This document shows positions 3,557 to 64,000 of a stretch of 64,000 bases of DNA, piece by piece. The DNA lies in the NCBI GenBank assembly GCA_977017645.1, contig OZ360230.1, positions 95,666,001 to 95,730,000 of the forward strand, in the 5' to 3' direction. The stretch is from Torpedo marmorata. Its lineage: Eukaryota. Under the pieces are notes generated by a model. It was not told the DNA's origin. It did no database searches and worked only from the letters and a program-made list of their open reading frames with translations. Position numbers and translations under genes: made by a program. Position 1 is the stretch's first letter. Every line of letters starts with the position of its first letter.

Positions 3557-4815
3557 AAATTGTAATAAACAGTGAGACGAGCAATTTTATTGAAATGGAA
3601 AGATGAGTTGTCAACGACACATAGACATGTGTATTATCAAATAAAAATGAGCAATGTTTCAATTTTGAAAGCCTAGAGAAACAATCAAGGTCTACTTTGT
3701 TGTAGCCTCGCAATGGGTCACATAAGTGTAAAAAACAAATGTTGAAGAGTCCGTGCAAATTGGGTATTGATTACCTTCTGCTATTTAGCTATCACTCTCT
3801 GATTCCTGAGTCTACGGTAAAATGCATTGTGTATAGAGGCTGGATGTCCTGATGACAGCAGTCCATGAACTTTCCTCATTAGCCATAGGAAGGTTTATCT
3901 TCTTCATTTTGCTTTCCTTTCATAATAGTCCACATGTTCCCTTGCTGTTGTGCATTACCTTGTGTACCATAAATTATTTGGCAGAAATAATTGCCCAAGG
4001 TGGTTAAAGAGTTGGGAGATGGAAATACCAGTGAATGACAATGACTCTTTCTTGTTGGACTTCACTTTTGCGTATGTTTCTTGCCAGTTATTAACCGAAT
4101 ATTATCTACATTCTGTTGGCTGCTCATTCTATCACATTGTTAATAATTGAGAGGAGATTGATTGGATGGTAATTAGCCAAATTGGATTTGACATGTCTTT
4201 GAGCAGGAAATACAAAGGCAACTTTCCATATTTTTGGGCAGATGCCAAAGTTGTTGTAATACTAGGACAGCTTAACAAGAAGTGCAACTAGTTCTGAAAT
4301 GCAGTTCTTAAATCCTACAACCACTTGTAACCTTGGCTCTATCCCATGCCTCCATCCTTGTCATCGTGTGGCACGAAGATTAACTTCTGTGATGGTGGCA
4401 GAGTGTTTAGATGTTTCTACTTGGCACTTTTAGCTAAACAAGAGTGCAATTGCTTCTGCCTTCTTTTGGTACTATGTGTGGATCTCTGCTATCTATGAGA
4501 ATGGGGGTGTCTGGTAACTTTAATTTCCCACTACCACAGAACTGGATGTGGCAACACTGTGCAGCTTTGATCAGATCTGCTGGTCTGTGGGTTTGCTTAG
4601 TGTTGTCTCTTCCCTACTGTTCTTTTGTTCACTGAAGTGGGTTTGGTTTTTTTTCTAGAGGGATGGGGGGTTGTCATTCTGTTTGGATTCTGGCACCATT
4701 TTTCTGTGTCTTTGTACAGTATGGACTGCTGGAGAGTGTGGTCTCTTGATTTGCAAACTAAAGGCAAGTGACTACCCTGTCTCAGTAACAATTATTTCTG
4801 TTTTTGTTTGCACAG

Positions 4816-7575: not shown

Positions 7576-9056
7576 GTGAGTATGCAAACAAAGGGGAGGC
7601 TGGCATTATACGAGGGGGCAAGTAATAAACTAGTGTACCAATGGAGTGTGTTGAAATGGGAGAAAGCACGCCTGGAACACGTACTTAAATCATTTTGGCT
7701 AATGGGCCTTTTTCCAGAACCTTACAATGCAGGTTCCTTGTAAGTTCTAAATAAATTAGTTTTTCATTGTGTCATTTGGAGACCTATCTGAAAACAGTGA
7801 AATGTGGGCTGTTTTCATTTAGTACTGGTGGTGCAGAATTGTAAAATAATAACATTCTTGTCATTTATTCAGGTTAGTTGTAAATTAATTTGGTCGAGGA
7901 AAGTAAAGGAAAATAAACATCACCAGAGTGCGCCAGAAAAATCCCAATGTCATATTGCATGGTAGCTCTCAACTAATAATTTAATTTTTTTCTTTTATAT
8001 GGAGAAAATGCGCACAATAGAAATCAAATGCAAAATCCTGAATCAGTATAAAATAATTTTTAAAATGTGGATAGAGCATGATGTGAGTAAACAGCATCTT
8101 TTAACATTACAAGATGCTTCACTCCTGAACGAAATGATTGCTTAATAATGTAGAATGTGTTCCATAATGTACTTCATTTTATACCATTTATTCTTTATGA
8201 TTGGAAGAAAATTTACATTTTTATTTCACTTCCAGGAGAAATCTGATTTTTGGGTCTGATAGTTGTTTATAAAGATGCAGGAGGAGGCCATTCAGCCCAT
8301 TGTTTAATGCTGGCACTCAGCAGTGTAATCCTCATGTCTCTTAACTCCAGTTTATTTTTCTATCACATGTTCATTAATTCCCCTTTGACCTTCCTGCCAC
8401 TTTCCTGCACTGAAAGACAATTTAGTCCTCAATTAACCTACAATACCCAGGAGAAACACACGGAGATATAGGGAGAACATCTAAAGTCTACACAAAAAAC
8501 AATCAAGTCAGGATTGAACCCAGACCCCTCAAGCACTTGACAATAGAGAGGGTGAACACCCAAATCTTGGTTTCTTATTCAACAGTAATTTTTAATCCAT
8601 GTTAATTTTTTGTATTTAAAGGGTAAACGTTGAAATAGAAATAGTGGTCTTGTTTACATTTTAATTATAACTCAAGTTTGCAGAAAGATACTGTTGAGGG
8701 GATCCATTTGGCTCGATTGTTCTCAGTTTGTTATCCAGCTTCTGAGTGATTCTTCTATCCTATCCAGGAGTTCTTTGTAGATGTTGATCAACTGACAGAC
8801 AACCTCCAGCTTTAAATTACAAATATATATTTTGCTAGTTTTAACCTGTGCCCGTTGTCACACTCCTGCAATTTAATTCCAGATTGTCTCTTCAATGCAG
8901 TTCCTGGTATTTTGAAAGCCCAAGATGATGATCCTGCTTTTACTGACAAGAACTAAAGGACTGACGATCAGTCTTGTGGCTTTTAATACCATGATTAATG
9001 CCTGCATGTGTTCTTTGTAATTTGGTTGCAGTTCCCAATGGACAAAATTGGGCATT

Positions 9057-22253: not shown

Positions 22254-23136
22254 CAGTAAAACCCTTGGTATTCGGCACCTATGGGGATTGGTAGAAGCCG
22301 GATAAGTGAATTTTTCAGTTGCTTGAGACCTACTCTTACAATTCCTAACCAATACACCTGCATTAAGAATAAATAGTTTAAAAGACAAAAATAGTATACT
22401 GTACTTGCACTGAACAAACTAACTTGCATGAATATATAAACCTTAAAGCATTTTACTTTATTTTCAGTCATATTCTTTGAAAACATTTAACCGTCGCTGC
22501 ATGTGCAGGTTCCTCCTCCTCCATGAAGCTGCCCGAAAGACGAACAATAACGTTATAGATAATTAACACCCCCCCTCTAAGTTTACAGATAAACCCTCTG
22601 ACCGGGGCGACTCTTACAAAGTAGGGATAAGGAGGCACCCCAACGGCGAGCGGCATCAACCAGCTCTTCATCCTGGGTGATGCCATTTTATTCAAGCACA
22701 ACTTTATTCAAGCACAACTTTATTCAAGCACAACTTTATTCAAGCACAACTTTATTCAAGCACAACTTTATTCAAGCACAACTTTATTCAAGCACAACTT
22801 TATTCAAGCACAACTTTATTCAAGCACAACTTTATTCAAGCACAACTTTATTCAAGCACAACTTTATTCAAGCACAACTTTATTGAAGCTATTCAAACAG
22901 CTGGTACGAGCAAAGCACAACCAAGGCACTCTGCTGGCTGAATATTTACTCCCATCTTCAACAAAAGTTTGTGTTACTTACTTCAGAGAACACTTACTTT
23001 TACAATATTAAACTTGCGTATTTTTAACCTATTTTATTCTTATTTATTTTAATTTTTTAAATGTATTTTCCTCTATTTTTTGCCAGTTGCTTGAGGCTGC
23101 TGGTTGTTTGAATTCCAGATACCAGGGGTTTTACTG
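22254..23136. mobile_element. Tigger-type MITE containing a minisatellite
   Basis: TIR CAGTAAAACCCYTGGTAT; TA TSD on both sides. Confidence 0.85.
22687..22889. repeat. Minisatellite: 12 perfect copies of TTTATTCAAGCACAAC (16 bp) plus a partial copy
   Basis: Direct reading of the sequence. Confidence 0.97.
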
Positions 23137-31233: not shown

Positions 31234-33968
31234 GTGAAGCATACAAGTCTGCAGACTCTGTGATTGCAGTCAAACACAGAAATGCTGGAAGAACTCATCT
31301 GATCTCACAGCGTCCATAGGAGGTAAAGATATATTACCGCCGTTTTGGGCCTGCAGGTTTGAGTGAAGAAACACAGCGTCTGAATTAAAGGCTGGGGAAA
31401 GAATGGGAGGGGGAGGTGTACATACCAACAGACAAAAGGTGTAAATTGGATATGATAAAAGGAAAGGTGAGAAATGATTTTGGATCTGTGAAAGACAGAG
31501 GGATAACAGAAGAGAGAGAGAGACCGAGCTAGAGGCAGGGGGAAGATGGTGGGGGGTGACCTTCAGAAACTGGAGAAGTTGATGCTAATACCACCCAGTT
31601 GGAGGGTGCCCAGACGGAAGATAAGGTGTTGTTCCTCCAATTCGCGGGTGGTCTCAGTCTGGCAGTGCATGAGACCGTGGACCGACATTATCAGCAAGGG
31701 GATGGGGAATTGAAATCGGTGGCCACTGGGAGATCCATGCTGTTGAGGTGGACAGAACCGAGGTGCTCAACAAAGTGATGTGTAGAGGACACCACAACGG
31801 GAGCACCAGATGCAGTAGAATGATCCCTGCAGATTGACAAGTGAAGTGTTGCATAACTTGGAAGGAATGTTTGGGGCCCCGAATGGTGGTGAGGGAGGAG
31901 GTGTGGGCACATCTTGTGCGGTCACAGCGGTAGGTGCCAAGGGGGAGATTGGTGGGGAGGGAGGAGTGGACGAGGAAGTCACGGAGGGAGCGGTCCCTGC
32001 AGAAGACGGAGAGGGGAATATGTGTCTGGTGCACTGACCTCCATCTGGCCGAAGCCAGACAATAACTGACACCTCCTCTTACCCCCTCCAACAGGACCCC
32101 AGCAAAACTCATCAAACCACTGTATCGCTCACTTTCTCTGAACTCAGCACTTCCGTTCATCTCCCCAGCATGGCCTCCAACCTCATTGTTTCCCAACCCT
32201 GCACTGCCCATTTCTACCTCCTACCCAAGATACAGTATACAAACCAAATTGTCCTGGTAGACCAATCGTTTCCATGTGCTCCTGCGCCACTGAATTCGTA
32301 TCCGCTTACCTAGACTTTGTTTTGTCCTCCCTGGTCCAGTCCCTCCCCACCTACATCCGGGATACTTCACGTGTCCTCCATCACTTCAACACCTTCCAGT
32401 TCCTTGAACCCAACCACCTCATTTTTACCTTGGACATCCAATCATTATACAAATCCACTATACACCTCCATCCCCGATACCAAAGACCTCAAAGCCCTTC
32501 GTTTCTTTCTCGACAATAGACCCAACCAGACCCCCTCCACCACCACCCTCCTTTGGCTGGAAGAACTTGTCCTCACCCTCAATAACTTCTCATTTGACTC
32601 ATCCCACTTTCTCCAAGTCAAAGCTGTAGTCATGGGTACATGCCTGGGCCCCAGCTATGCCTGCCTTTTTGTTGGCTACATGGAGCAATCCATGCTACAA
32701 GCCTACACAGGCAAGGCCTGTCAACTTTTCCTCCGCTACATCGATGACTACTTTGGTGCTGCCTCAAAGTGGACTTTATCCACTTTGCTGCCAACTTCCA
32801 CCTTGACCTCAAATTCACTTGGTCTATCTCTCTCAACACTCCCTTTTCTCAATCTCTCTGACTCCATCTCGGGAGACAACTCTCGACAGACATCTTCTAC
32901 AAACCCACCAATTCCCACAGCTACCTCGACTACACCTCTTTACACATTGACCACTGACCCCTGTAAGGATTCAATTCCTTTCCCTTAATTCCTCTGTCTC
33001 TGTCCATGGTCTTCCATGCCAGATCATTATAGATGTCCTCCTTCAAACAATGTGGCTTCCCCTCTATCACCATCAACTCGGCCCTCACCTGCATATGCTC
33101 CACTATGCACACATCTGTCCGGGCCCCCTCCGCCACCATGTGCAACAAGGACAGGATTCCCCTTGTCCTCACAAAATACATTTCCGCCACCTACCATGTG
33201 ATCCAACCACCAGACACGTATTCCCCTCTCCACCTTCCGCCAGGACAGCTCCCTCCGTGACCCTCGTCCGCTCCTCTCTTCCCACCAATCGCTCCCTTGG
33301 TACCTACCCCTGTGACTGCAGGAGATGCGCCCACACCTCCCTCACCACCATTCGGGGCTCCAAACAGTCCTTCCAAGTGAAGCAACACTTGTCAATCAGG
33401 GATAATCATCTGCATACTGCATCTCCTGTTATGGTCTCCTCTACATTGGAGAGACTGGACGCAGACTGGGAGATTGCTTCGTTGAACACCTCTGCTCTGC
33501 TACAATAGCGTGGATCTCCCAGTGGCCACCCATTTCAATTTCCCACCTCATTCCCTTGCTGACATGTCTGTCCATGGTCTCATGCACTGCCGGACTGAGA
33601 TAACCCGCAAATTGGAGGAATAACACCTCATCTTCCGTCTCAGCACCCTCCAACCAGATGGCATTAACATAAACTTCTCCAGTTTCCGTAAACCACCACC
33701 ACCATATTTTCCCCGTCTCTCTCGCTCTCTCTCCTTTCACAGAGCCAAAATCAATTTTCACCTTTCCTTTTATCATATCCAATTAACACCTTTTGTCTGT
33801 TGGTCTGTACACCTCCCCCTCCCATTCTTTTCCCAGCTTTTAATTCAGACGCTGTGTTTTTTTCACTCGTACCTTGAAGGGCTCAGGCCCGAAACGTCAG
33901 AAATATATATTCACCTCCAATGGACTTTGTGAGACAGGCTGAGTTCCTCCAGCATTTTTGTTCTTTGA
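31234..33968 (+). mobile_element. Penelope-like retroelement (pseudogenised RT + GIY-YIG region) with inverted pLTRs and 12-bp TSD
   Basis: RT motifs MGTCLGPSYACLFVG and LRYIDD; about 31270-32040 is an inverted copy of about 33210-33968; CTAGTCTTTGCT at 31222-31233 and 33969-33980. Confidence 0.92.
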
Positions 33969-59477: not shown

Positions 59478-60057
59478 TGTTACAAACTCAAACCAGCAAC
59501 GACAGAAGACGCAATGCAAAAGGGGTAAAATTGAAATTTATATTTATTAAAGACAATTAAACATATAATTTACTAACAATTAACCCCACCATAAATGTCT
59601 ATAAACACTATTCTTATCTAAATAGTGTGTGTAAAGCCCAGACCATTACAGTCTGTGCTCAACCCTCATGTAAAAATGGAAAATCTTCCCCAAAACTCCC
59701 AGGTCAGTCATAAAAATAAAGTCCCAAAATAAAAATAAAAATAAGTCAGTCCCAAAAATACGGTCCACAAAAATCACTCTCTCTGTTCAGGGTCCAAATT
59801 CAGCTCTGTGCGCTGGCACGAAGGACTTCTTAATGAACGTTGGGGAGAGACAATGACTGTTTAAGCTTACAAATGCTTGGCCTGCTTTTCTTCCCTGAAG
59901 GCTTTCCCTTTTGGTAGGTACATGAGGATTGCGATTCCAAATCAGTATACCACTGTTTGAGGTGTATACTTGGATCTCACGGCCTCTCGCTGATCTCAAG
60001 CCTGTTCTTCACGAAAGTTGCTTTATCTCAGGATTTTGCTGATTCAAGAAGTCATGT
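59478..60057 (-). mobile_element. Probable LTR (partial), interrupted by a Gypsy insertion
   Basis: Starts TGTTAC; TTTATT (reverse polyA signal) near the end; abrupt junction at 60058. Confidence 0.45.
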
Positions 60058-61160
60058 TGTAGCGGGCCGAGCGGCTGCGCGGTTAGACGAGCCGAATTGC
60101 CGCACCAGTCGGTCGGCACAAGGTGGCGCGGATCCACCTTCCCTTCTCAGGAGAAGCCCGCATTTAGCGACGCGCGATGCCTAGGGGACGTCACCACGCT
60201 GGGCAGGCAGTGGCTCCACAGCGTGCTGACGTCACTTCCTGGCTCCAACTCATCGGGCTACCGGAAGTGCGTCGTCCCAAGGCAAGCAGCGCGAGCTATT
60301 CAAATAATAAAACACAATGGTTCACTCTCCATCCATGTGGACGTACTTTATTTTGATAGCGCTGCCATTTGCAGCCGCTGCAGTGGTGACCCCGACGGTT
60401 CCAAGGTTTTTGTAACCCACCTCGAGCGCGACGATATGCAGACTGCTGCTACCGCTCCAGTCGCAACGGCTGCGACCAATGCTGTGGGCGTACATTTGCC
60501 GCCCTTCTGGGCCAACCAGCCCAGGACCTGGTTACATCTGGCCAAGTCACAGTTCCAGCTCAGAGACATTGTCTCGGAAGACACCAAGTTCTGGCACGTC
60601 GTCAGCGCCTTGGACGCCGCCACCGCAGCCAAAGTAAGCTCCTTCGTGGAAAATCCTCCAATGGAGCGAAAGTACGAACAATTCCAGCGTCTCCTCCTTG
60701 ACTCCCAAGAGTTCAGCCAGCACGAGCGCGCCATCCGCATCCTAAACATGCAAGGCCTGGGCGATAGAGCCTCCGAGCTCATGCATGAAATGGTGGCTTT
60801 AGCAGACGGGCACACAAACTGTTTCCTGTTCGAGGCCCTGTTCCTCTCCAAGCTACCGGTGCACGTTTCCTCGGCAATATTGAGCATGGATTTCAGCGTC
60901 CCACACCTGGTAGCCAAGGAAGCAGACAGACTTTTCCGCACCCCGCAGCAGAGCTCCATGCACGCGCAACCGATCTACGCCATTGGCACCTCCGGTTCAA
61001 CCCAGGTACCAGGGTTTGCCTCCCCGCTGGGTCCGCCAGCAGTAGCCGCGACCCAACCGCAGCACCACGAGTGCTCAGACAAGCAGAGCGATTACTGTTC
61101 CTACCACCGCAGATGGGGCCATAACGCCTGGCGGTGTGTTTCCCCCTTCTCGTACCCCAA
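60058..61160 (+). mobile_element. Gypsy/Ty3 LTR retrotransposon 5' part: LTR 60058-60382, tRNA-Trp PBS 60384-60397, gag from 60436
   Basis: TGTAGCGG...CCGCTGCA termini; PBS TGGTGACCCCGACG; gag LPPFW..P.TW motif and CxYHxxWGxxAxxC knuckle; interrupted at about 61160. Confidence 0.88.
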
Positions 61161-64000
61161 TACTAAGTATTACGGTGACTTCGATCCAACAATAGTCACC
61201 TGGAGGCTAAGTGAGATACTTTTGTCTTTGACGCGTTTTAATTAATTTACTAACAAAGTCCAATATGTTCAAAACCTTTATTTACACACATGACTTGCAG
61301 TAATCTTCAATACTTCAATATAAACAGTTCTTGAAATGATGTATGAAGAGTTCCTTTAAATGATTCTTTAAACAATTCCAAAAACGATATAAAACACTAA
61401 AATGATGTAAAAAGTTATAAAACGATCTAAAACGGTCAATAAAGATGTGGAGACCTCACTCACCCTCCTAACATCTCATTCCTTTCCTATTTTCTAGAAA
61501 ATTCCCGAATGCTCCGTCCCTAAACCACTGCGCACCCTACACCGCGCATACTACAATTCCCAGACTGCCCCGCGCCCAATGACGTCACTCCACACTGCGC
61601 ATGCACCCGTTGGCACTCCAGCGCATGCACAGAACGGGCCGAGGACGGCCCGACGGGCAATGCGAGCGCTCCACAAGCCGACGAGGCGCCGGAGCGCCGC
61701 AGCAAGGTAAGTACATGAGCCTACGGCTCTTACACCGGCCCCTAATTATTATAATTAGATGCAACGTCTTGAATAATAATTACACTATAAAATTATAATA
61801 ACAATAACCGTAACATTCAAACAATACAAATCTTCTTTCTTCCTTCTTCATAAATCTAGAGTTTACCATTATTCTGATTCAACAAAAGTCTGTAACCTGT
61901 GAAATATACAACAACAAATAAAGTCAGTTTACATTTATCAAAGTTCCTCTTTTGTCAACAAACGGCAGACCTTGTTAATAGGTCTGTTTAGAAAACCAGT
62001 CTTAGCTTTAATTCATACTTGATGCACAAGTCCCCTTTTGTCTTGAAAAGTCTCAATAATTTTTCCAAGTAACCAGGAGTTTCCCGAAGTTGAACCATCC
62101 ATAACAATCACAATGCCTCTTTAAAGTTTTTTATCTCTATAATCTTTGAGTTAAAACATCAACCAGTAAGCTTCAAATCTTCCTCAGATAAAATAGATAC
62201 AGTTTTTCTTTTGAATTTAACACAAGGCACTTCTTCAACATGTCGTTTCACTTTATTTCTTTTTTCAGTATTCCACTTCTCATGTGAAGAATTTAAACTC
62301 TTAGAACTAGAATTTGAATATTTATTTGATCCTTTCGATTTTAAACAGGTCTGTTTAACCACTCTGGTTTCTATTGCTTTTTCCTGCAATTCCAAATCCA
62401 ATTTTGCAACTTTAACAATTCGGTCTCAGTTCTTTCCGAGAAATTAATAATTTGATCTGAAGTCAAAATATCATGTGATACATTGATATTTCCATTGTCA
62501 ATCCTGTTGCGACAAACTTGAATTTTTTTAATTTCTTCATCTTGTTTGTTACATTTCTGCAATGCAATATCACATTCTTTCTGTATTGTTAATTGTTTTG
62601 TGTTATTAACCAATAACTTGTTCTCTTTCAAAACATTAATCTCTTCCTCCAACCTTTTACATTTTGATAATGCTGAATCTCTTTCCTCGATAACTGTATT
62701 CATTTCTTCAGCAGTTATTCTTTTCTTCCGCTTTCTGACTTTGCGAGTTTTACTTACAATTAAATCTTTCTGTTTACTGTTTTCTTGATTATCTAATATT
62801 TCCAATTCCCCTTTCAACATTTTGTTCTCTGAATTCAATTGCATTAAATTATCATTCACATTATTCTTTATTCCATCAGCACAATTTTCTGTGTTTTCCA
62901 GTTTTACATCACATTGTAATCTTTCTTCATTAGCTTTGTCTGTTGTAATCTCTGAACTACAAAATCTACATTCAGATTTGTTTTCAGTCACTTGTTTTAT
63001 TCCTGTATTTGATTCAATTACACATGAATAATCAATGGTATTATTTGCAACATCTTCTAATACTTCACTTTCATCCATTTCTGACGAAATTAATTCCTTC
63101 AATGTTGTTTTAAATACTATTGATTTATTTTCACATTGATCTGTTTTCCTTTCTTCAAAAGTGATTTTCTTATTCACGGTTTTTTGCTCTTCGCTTAACT
63201 CTTCAACTTTCACAACCGAAATTCTATTAATATTTGTCGCTACCTGTTCCTGAGCAATATCATTATTTCTTTCCATTGGTCCATTGATTGTCCAACCAAG
63301 CATGATTTTAACAGCATAAGGTCCATTCCTTTTACTCTCTATTACTTCTTTTGGTACCAAAACCTTTGGCACATCTGAACCAATCAGCATTTCTATCTCA
63401 GAATTAATTTCAGGTAAATAAACCTTCCACAGATAAGCTAAATGATGGATATCCCTTTGATGAGGAATATTTCCTTCATTCACAGGCATAGTCTTCTGAG
63501 TATATACACTTGGAAGATCACAACATTTTTTGTCATCCAATCCAGCAACCTCTAAGCCTGAAACAATGTTAGTTTCAACAACCTTTTCTTGTCCCATGGT
63601 TTTTAACATAATTTTTTATCTTTTTCCTTGAATATTAAGTTTATTCATTAGTCCTTCCGTGCAAAAAGATGCAGTGCTGCCTGGGTCTAAAAATGCATAT
63701 GTTTTAACTATTACATCCCCTTTCTTGGCCTTGACTTGTACAGGCACTATTGAAAGTTTGCCGTTATTCACACCGGCCCCAGTAAGACCACTTGTCTGAA
63801 CCGAGGTTATAACATTATTTTCTGTTGTTTCCTTTGTTTCTGTTTGCTCCTTTTCCAATTCCTTGTTTCTGTTATGGATATGCAAAATTCTAGGATGTTT
63901 CAAATTGCATATGTTACAATTCATTCGCTTCTCGCAGTTTTTACTGATGTGCCCTTTACACAGACAGCTAAAACATATTCCATTTTCCTTTAAGAAAGCA
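61161..64000 (-). mobile_element. BEL/Pao LTR retrotransposon, non-autonomous; 3' LTR about 61161-61734; continues beyond the window
   Basis: Gag Cys-His knuckles; protease AFLDPGSTASF; LGWTINGP; integrase C-tail SWLLGKI...RPINKVC; PPT AGGGGCCGG followed by TGTAAG; no RT motifs. Confidence 0.88.
62500..62940 (-). pseudogene. MIPOL1-like coiled-coil segment fused in frame within the BEL polyprotein
   Basis: RITAEEMNTVIEERDSALSKCKRLEEEI versus recalled human MIPOL1 RITAEEMSALIEERDAALSKCKRLEQEL. Confidence 0.75.

Follow-up and report, generated by a model that had tools for sequence, protein, structure and literature searches.

Acutely transforming retroviruses carry spliced host sequence fused to gag in place of pol, and they are helper dependent. 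Among LTR retrotransposons, the available part of Tan et al. 2016 (PMC5131818) describes reverse transcriptase (RT) switching onto co-packaged mRNAs, with multi-gene chimeras and secondary spread as the result. Dong et al. 2016 (PMC4897178) defined circRNA-derived pseudogenes by a non-colinear exon–exon joint and found 33 high-confidence circRFWD2 copies associated with an LTR element (MMERVK10C-int), for which the mechanism was left open. Exonic MIPOL1 circRNAs appear in the available parts of reports on mouse (PMC9888537) and human (PMC8783515), and their exon content may differ from the exons B–H described below. In the available text of a recent preprint (bioRxiv 10.64898/2026.06.26.734816), MIPOL1 is the first-named of the five most retrocopied genes in cartilaginous fishes, the other top parents of the lineage being SUDS3, SDF2L1, SLU7, and ZNF276; that text frames them by germline expression, non-LTR elements, and selective filtering.

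Here we describe a BEL/Pao LTR family of the ray Torpedo marmorata, starting from a 64,000-nt stretch of contig OZ360230.1 (hereafter, the window). It is probable, in our judgement, that the RT–RNase H–integrase region of a BEL/Pao element was swapped for in-frame, intron-free pieces of BRCA1, MIPOL1, and Elongin A (ELOA), with the MIPOL1 piece taken from a circular RNA through template switching inside the particle. The open-licence PMC and bioRxiv literature yielded no description of a BRCA1–MIPOL1–Elongin A BEL family.

Anatomy of the element and its family

A non-autonomous BEL/Pao LTR element occupies the minus strand of window positions 61168–64000 with its 3′ part; completed from the neighbouring genome stretch, the full element is 5.6–5.7 kb long. 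All features that follow lie on this strand. Positions 63184–64000 encode the gag C-terminus with its Cys-His knuckles, the aspartic protease (motif LDPGS, read in frame at 63690–63676), and the protease–RT linker; identity to the helper elements described below stops at 63184. The remainder of gag, with its start near 65865, and a 5′-clipped LTR (about 66880–66315) lie past the window end, and this clipping makes the target site duplication (TSD) of the window copy unreadable. The linker is followed by a captured BRCA1 piece (62760–63183), which has 233/298 identities to the host long exon over 63057–62760, and by spliced MIPOL1 exons F (part), G, and H (62507–62767; identities 93/104, 69/82, and 65/78), from which 45 nt across G/H have been deleted in frame. 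At 62506–62507, the donor of MIPOL1 exon H meets the acceptor of exon B in a non-colinear joint, the signature of back-splicing; parts of exons B and C (62360–62506; 43/55 and 64/70) lead to an Elongin A remnant (62142–62360), which consists of the end of the long ELOA exon and then exon 6 (123/152 and 51/61) and is accompanied by the terminal stop of the family (62161–62159). The integrase C-terminal tail of the young helper (61931–62119; 170/189), a polypurine tract (61735–61745), and the 3′ LTR (61168–61734), which has TG...TA ends and is 96.8% identical to the element's own 5′ LTR, complete the element.

An initial annotation of the window, made from the letters alone, had read a minus-strand polyprotein running from gag knuckles through the protease (LDPGS) to LGWTINGP, and all of these were found in frames 63616–63999 and 62371–63615. 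The two frames are parted by one in-frame stop (63616–63618), which the annotation had correctly seen in the window copy and at whose site the frame is open in other natural copies; the frameshift it had put near 62400 was placed near 62415. It had also reported the absence of YxDD and DDE motifs, and our search from 63300 to the LTR in the three sense frames likewise found no YxDD-like or integrase-core motif. Its view that only the integrase tail, polypurine tract, and LTR come after the host tract was right as to the presence of these parts, the tail being recognisable by DKRG/RPIN, but missed the Elongin A remnant (62360–62142) standing before the tail.

In a DNA search with the element, all of the best 40 of 1338 candidates scored were 98–100% identical. 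LTR pairs are 95.8–99.4% alike in 16 of the 20 young loci fetched. TSDs of 5 bp are perfect in 10 and match at 4/5 positions in 2 of the 12 loci with readable ends (16 examined). The gag of the family has three Cys-His knuckles followed by the aspartic protease in a single frame; DUF1759 was matched in gag at E = 6e-5, below the curated cut-off, and the Pfam match of the protease is weak. At the protein level, gag-protease of the young family is 86–94% identical to that of the helpers. With paired LTRs, 5-bp TSDs, and gag, DUF1759, and protease in one frame, and with autonomy lost, the window family is filed as a non-autonomous derivative of BEL/Pao. As for its termini, the LTRs end in TG...TA in the young family and the helper (L123–L130) and in TG...CA in the old family, and in the young family and the helper no TGG directly follows the 5′ LTR. 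The gag N-terminus of both passenger and helper carries a SAP domain (P0002 residues 30–63; L123) and then a variable glutamine/glutamate repeat. No env was seen in either.

Other features of the window include a 400-codon plus-strand frame with DUF7041 (60043–61245; PF23055, E = 5.6e-16), which lies tail to tail with the 3′ LTR and is probably a gag-like relic of another element, a 16-nt tandem array (22687–22894), and a long inverted duplication of a LINE-like stretch (31366–33862).

Helper elements and the replaced region

A search of the genome with PF05380 led to intact BEL elements, of which eight loci were fetched; open frames of 2018–2134 aa with RT, Pao peptidase, and integrase were found in four of them. 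The window family is 85–96% identical to seven of the eight, with 90–96% over long gag-protease blocks, and the eighth (L129) is a more distant BEL. Identity to the helper runs to helper position 4780 and resumes at 7971. A foreign cassette of ~1.07 kb, in frame with gag-protease, stands in place of the ~3.2-kb RT–RNase H–integrase region, so that RT, RNase H/Pao peptidase, and integrase, all present in the related helper, are missing from the window family. The longest old copies retain more of the RT start and more BRCA1.

Two readings of the cassette as native BEL sequence were ruled out. The acidic tract is missing from all eight helper loci and thus is not a native linker. The initial annotation had named as contrary to its proposal the case in which the MIPOL1 segment is a normal part of autonomous BEL elements, and the eight helper loci gave no MIPOL1 match.

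MIPOL1 exons and the back-splice joint

A protein search with the whole tract gave nothing at E ≤ 0.01, because low-complexity scoring masked MIPOL1 until the region was narrowed. With region 105–262 of P0001, all 42 protein matches (from 163 candidates) were MIPOL1, the best being a stingray protein (E = 1e-14), and the top three matches of an Atlas search were also MIPOL1; the Pfam set used contains no MIPOL1 models. The match to vertebrate MIPOL1 proposed in the initial annotation is thus significant homology, but the 'ANEER' flank was assigned elsewhere: it and the acidic tract come from BRCA1, and 'ANEER' was rejected as MIPOL1 on the ground that old copies and host BRCA1 read KVNEK at that site. 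The extent of the homology was also revised, since MIPOL1 goes on past the frameshift as the earlier exons B–C, out of order.

Stingray MIPOL1 found intron-free matches in the genome (best 90 scored of 40,391 candidates). In all 25 old-type loci fetched, which were chosen for likeness to MIPOL1, MIPOL1 residues about 345–452 come first, and residues from about 194 on follow directly (24/25 loci by tblastn, 25/25 at the DNA level). The host MIPOL1 gene is located on C40 of the same genome. We lettered its exons A–I for this analysis; exons B–H are 136, 106, 130, 34, 171, 108, and 95 nt long (780 nt in total), all with AG/GT ends. An old copy matches host exons F (part), G, H, B, and C at 93.6–97.1% identity without introns and extends about 18 nt into exon D. 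The match crosses the F|G, G|H, and B|C junctions in spliced form, which was a check that the initial annotation had proposed.

The order of the captured exons is permuted: F-G-H is followed by B-C-D. The H donor abuts the B acceptor exactly, with only a common AG ambiguous, in 25/25 old-type loci, and the joint is kept in the window copy at 62507/62506. In the host gene, exon B lies 206 kb upstream of H; linear splicing is thus unable to form the H|B joint. The exons present in the element are B, C, D (part), F (part), G, and H, which cover about 600 of the 780 nt of B–H, and exons A and I were not matched in the comparison of element copies with the host gene, nor was exon I in the window copy. 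H|B is the only joint with splice sites on both sides, the five other testable ends of cassette pieces being mid-exon. For a random jump, the probability of striking a splice site on each side is 2e-4. The ends of exons A and H have an AG in common, a 2-nt microhomology, and for an AG-guided jump the probability is 0.0014 (five AG-ending exons), or about 0.002 when the end of exon A is counted (six). Exons B–H are each single-copy within the 350 kb of the host locus read. The features of circRNA-derived retrocopies according to Dong et al. 2016, a non-colinear joint at donor and acceptor and the presence of circle exons only, were both found. The exact H|B joint makes it likely that the template of the MIPOL1 piece was a circular RNA, a circle predicted here from the joint.

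Contigs of three coded sequencing runs fall on the cassette; among the pieces listed, H|B is spanned by one contig of X1 and two of X2, and these may be DNA and are silent on expression and age.

BRCA1 and Elongin A pieces

The acidic tract is derived from BRCA1. With the tract of an old copy, three of four matches were to BRCA1 of skate, bamboo shark, and chimaera (best 68% identity, E = 5e-57), and the host BRCA1 long exon (C61) is 89–93% identical to all ten old copies compared and 78% to the window copy. Upstream of 63057, the match is to skate BRCA1 at the protein level, the host comparison covering the long exon. The element crosses the start of the long exon without an intron. At this start, element copies retain 9 nt missing from the present host exon (L144), and the skate protein has those residues; the BRCA1 capture is likely older than the 9-nt deletion in the host.

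Downstream of MIPOL1, an old copy matches Pfam Elongin_A (E = 6.7e-16), and the host ELOA exons (C41) match in order and in spliced form at about 83–98%. Up to five spliced ELOA exons are retained in old copies. Exon 5 was lost at a short repeat in some lineages, and the Elongin_A domain is gone from the young family. A second, exon-split Elongin_A match of the genome (G000:C25:175318134-175337048) is possibly a paralogue.

All three parent genes were found in the same genome, the captured pieces lack introns, and BRCA1 and ELOA were captured colinearly. The best database matches for MIPOL1 and ELOA are batoid. No annotated chimeric protein was found in the best 120 of 627 matches (lengths 326–1040; none above 26% query cover). 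The pattern agrees with LTR-mediated retrocopies as described by Tan et al. 2016, in that partial spliced host sequence is LTR-flanked, has no poly(A), and has switch points common to the copies. The initial proposal of a non-autonomous LTR family that transduced spliced MIPOL1 mRNA accordingly stands in one part: a non-autonomous BEL/Pao element swapped RT–RNase H–integrase for intron-free host sequence including MIPOL1, in frame, and was amplified. Its other part does not, since the source was not one linear MIPOL1 mRNA but three genes, with the MIPOL1 part non-colinear across a back-splice joint.

The joints between the pieces differ. BRCA1|MIPOL1 has a microhomology of only about 2 nt, and MIPOL1|ELOA (L051/L102/L104; deleted in the window copy) has a 15-nt spacer whose best match is the left end of the LTR: the computed agreement with the LTR start is 13/15 for L102 and L103 and 12/15 in the helper, and agreement with the L104 LTR start, read by eye from the sequence, is 14/15. 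Therefore, not every cassette joint is a simple RT switch; the spacer is either a run-off template jump or the scar of a nested insertion. Later deletions in the cassette have clear microhomologies of 6–8 nt.

Copy number and lineage history

The spliced F|G joint has 20,375 exact matches in the genome, and its pattern is present in 20/20 young and 20/25 old loci examined. The H|B joint has 4,993 matches for the young and intermediate types (including most of the 178 of an earlier pattern) and 185 for the old type, which gives at least 5,178. The RT motif of the helper has 499 exact matches. The reversed controls gave 0 in every search. These counts are floors for exact matches, some of which may lie outside elements; their unequal breadth makes the resulting ratio of 40:1 rough. 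The F|G count shows that the element is not single-copy, a possibility raised with the initial annotation. If most copies are full length, the family could, at about 5 kb per copy, occupy roughly 100 Mb of the assembly (1.6%).

Five cassette matches at an exact spacing of 4964 bp (G000:C1:1498347-1518227) represent a tandem array of the element. Four cassette-bearing copies lie in the introns of host MIPOL1 (G000:C40 64.34-64.50 Mb); a special meaning of these was rejected, four in 350 kb standing against about 1 per 305 kb, an average that is exceeded here but is itself an exact-match floor.

Old copies have LTR pairs that are 85–92% alike where both remain, LTRs that differ from those of the young family, and a gag-protease only 64–79% like that of the young helper. 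Compared column by column, old copies and host exons differ by dS 0.038, which places the capture shortly before the burst of old copies. In a protease tree of 35 rows (6/20 young loci kept, duplicates dropped, no formal clade test), young passengers group with helpers (98/96), two intermediate copies branch below, and old passengers stand apart (100/100). The integrase tail is longer by about 65 nt in the young family than in the old one. The tree and this longer tail suggest that the cassette shifted to newer backbones by recombination.

Open frame and selection

A continuous frame, for which the initial annotation had proposed a test, was found in 3 of the 20 young loci fetched, where it runs open from gag to the cassette end over 1264–1344 codons; two of these three loci have common flanks and are probably one insertion. 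From the old to the young lineage, no stop was fixed in 262 codons, compared with 8.9 expected, and 0/5000 simulations gave none; the stretch ends at the first fixed stop, a boundary chosen by the analyst. The common deletions of 24, 120, 45, 81, 195, and 3 nt (17–19 of 19 copies) are all in-frame, for which the chance is about (1/3)^6, with the reservation that some were split by the aligner and that L106 has a private indel there. The first deletion beyond the stop is 22 nt. The frame has stayed open through about 20% divergence. Seven of 19 young copies have early breaks before the normal stop, three of them with one common stop, and a sub-lineage may have moved with this early stop.

Amino acid conservation followed a different course. 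Over the 262 codons, dS is 0.32, dN 0.18, and omega 0.56, and neutral simulations with the observed A/T-biased spectrum gave omega 0.46–0.97, of which 201/1000 were as low as 0.56. The test of protein-level selection on the captured part that had been suggested at the outset was therefore negative. Omega is about equal by part (BRCA1 0.57, MIPOL1 0.58, ELOA 0.49). A per-exon dN/dS against the host was set aside, as it mixes constraint on the host branch with alignment noise at deletion edges. G>A (43), C>T (39), and C>A (21) predominate among the 142 fixed changes between old and young cassettes; the host-derived sequence is drifting to the A-rich composition of the element. We read these results as selection acting on the open frame, with amino acids not detectably conserved. 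Because the frame was kept (0 stops) and the amino acids were not (omega in the neutral range), the cassette is most likely a passenger and not a working fusion protein. The comparison with oncogene capture made in the initial annotation holds for structure, that is, gag fusion and helper dependence, and fails for selection on the cargo sequence, which in gag-onc transduction is expected and was not detected here.

Origin of the cassette

According to the explanation that we favour, host RNAs, including a 780-nt MIPOL1 circle of exons B–H, would have been co-packaged, and RT would have switched onto them. Minus-strand synthesis would run from the integrase tail onto ELOA mRNA, past the 15-nt LTR-end-like scar, then for about 600 nt round the B–H circle and across its joint, and then onto BRCA1 mRNA and back near the RT start, in one round or several. 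Because B–H amounts to 260 codons, the frame would be kept on crossing the joint. The helper would supply RT and integrase in trans, and recombination with co-packaged helper RNA may have carried the cassette from an old to a younger BEL backbone, after which deletions trimmed it. An early stop followed by a long 3′ UTR destabilises RNA through nonsense-mediated decay; such a stop would destabilise the genomic RNA, and the frame was most likely kept by selection at the RNA level.

Trans-splicing, exon repetition, or a tandem duplication since lost would produce the same exon-exact H|B joint. An origin of the joint by the spliceosome acting on linear RNA or from an ancestral B–H duplication, captured as mRNA, also agrees with the colinear capture of BRCA1 and ELOA, but we find it quite unlikely: exons B–H occur once each in the 350-kb host locus, the capture is confined to B–H and spans about 600/780 nt, as in a partial pass round a circle, and MIPOL1 circles are reported from mammals, as far as the available parts of those reports go. 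A chance RT jump between two sites of a linear MIPOL1 mRNA could have been helped by the AG common to the ends of exons H and A. It is very improbable, as an exon start and an exon end would both have to be struck (P about 0.002 even when AG-guided) in a cassette whose other five testable ends are mid-exon. Assembly at the DNA level, in which a BEL inserted into an earlier retrocopy-bearing element and deletions fused the parts, would explain why the MIPOL1/ELOA spacer resembles the LTR left end (12/15–14/15). It accounts for one joint only, still requires RNA templates for three pieces that are all spliced and in sense orientation, and predicts a scar that would also result if RT ran off the terminus of strong-stop DNA; as a full account we consider it unlikely, and as an additional step it is compatible with the circular-RNA explanation.

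The remaining alternatives concern what the cassette does. The fused host peptides might serve the element in the manner of gag-onc proteins, with either the coiled coil of MIPOL1 or the basic tail of Elongin A aiding Gag-protease to co-assemble with the particles of the helper. This would account for passengers being in excess over helpers (20,375 versus 499 matches). The open frame speaks for such a role, as do the retention of the F-G-H coiled coil through every trimming and the survival of the cassette through a change of backbone. It is nevertheless doubtful, given an omega inside the neutral range and about equal across the three parts, the loss of the Elongin_A domain in the young family, and the trimming of MIPOL1 by the 45- and 81-nt deletions. 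Moreover, shorter, RT-less elements may outnumber their helpers without any cargo function. A stronger form, which we hold to be rather doubtful, is that a BEL particle took up and reverse-transcribed a germline circRNA whose 260-codon frame contains no stop, and that the BRCA1–MIPOL1–Elongin A tail became a hijacking module, with which the passenger out-replicates its helper about 40-fold and moves between helper lineages. If so, it would be the most amplified circRNA fossil that we found described.

Comparison with known systems

With a back-splice joint in a defined LTR family for which helper, intermediates, and parent exons are all at hand, capture of a circRNA by an LTR RT becomes traceable, and a MIPOL1 circle of exons B–H is predicted in the ray germline. 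Hypothetically, piRNAs could be directed to the host genes by the BRCA1-, MIPOL1-, and ELOA-like sequences, which number in the tens of thousands.

The family resembles gag-onc retroviruses in that pol is swapped for spliced host sequence on gag and in its helper dependence; unlike them, it showed no env in either passenger or helper, and no selection on its cargo was found at the level of amino acids. Each ingredient has precedent, and the combination, frame retention, and scale are without precedent in the open-licence PMC and bioRxiv literature.

As far as the available text of the preprint allows comparison (bioRxiv 10.64898/2026.06.26.734816), its MIPOL1 'retrocopies' contrast with the ray family, which is one capture amplified by an LTR element. 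The family probably explains the first place of MIPOL1 among the retrocopied genes of cartilaginous fishes, and it illustrates how, under 'selective filtering', a single transposon-amplified capture can be taken for retrocopies in their thousands. SUDS3, SDF2L1, SLU7, and ZNF276 may likewise be transposon passengers.

Mouse circRFWD2 (PMC4897178) is alike in its non-colinear joint, its restriction to circle exons, its LTR-element context, and its many copies. No fusion frame was described for it, whereas the ray MIPOL1 piece is internal and in-frame and belongs to a defined family whose joint is matched at least 5,178 times; conversely, the circRFWD2 circle is known from RNA-seq, and the MIPOL1 B–H circle is predicted here from its DNA joint. 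Maize Bs1 and other LTR-mediated retrocopies, as described in the available part of PMC5131818, resemble the ray family in that an LTR element contains parts of several genes without their introns, in common switch points, in sense orientation, and in secondary retroposition as a non-autonomous element; the number of parental genes is three, as in Bs1. Bs1 has 1–5 copies with one gene out of frame, whereas in the ray all three pieces are in frame with gag-protease and counts exceed 20,000. The ray family is a vertebrate case of three-gene exon shuffling, including BRCA1, and its scale exceeds that of Bs1 by a factor of thousands. It differs further from Bs1 in having one non-colinear donor and in being carried by a vertebrate BEL/Pao element for which an intact related helper exists.
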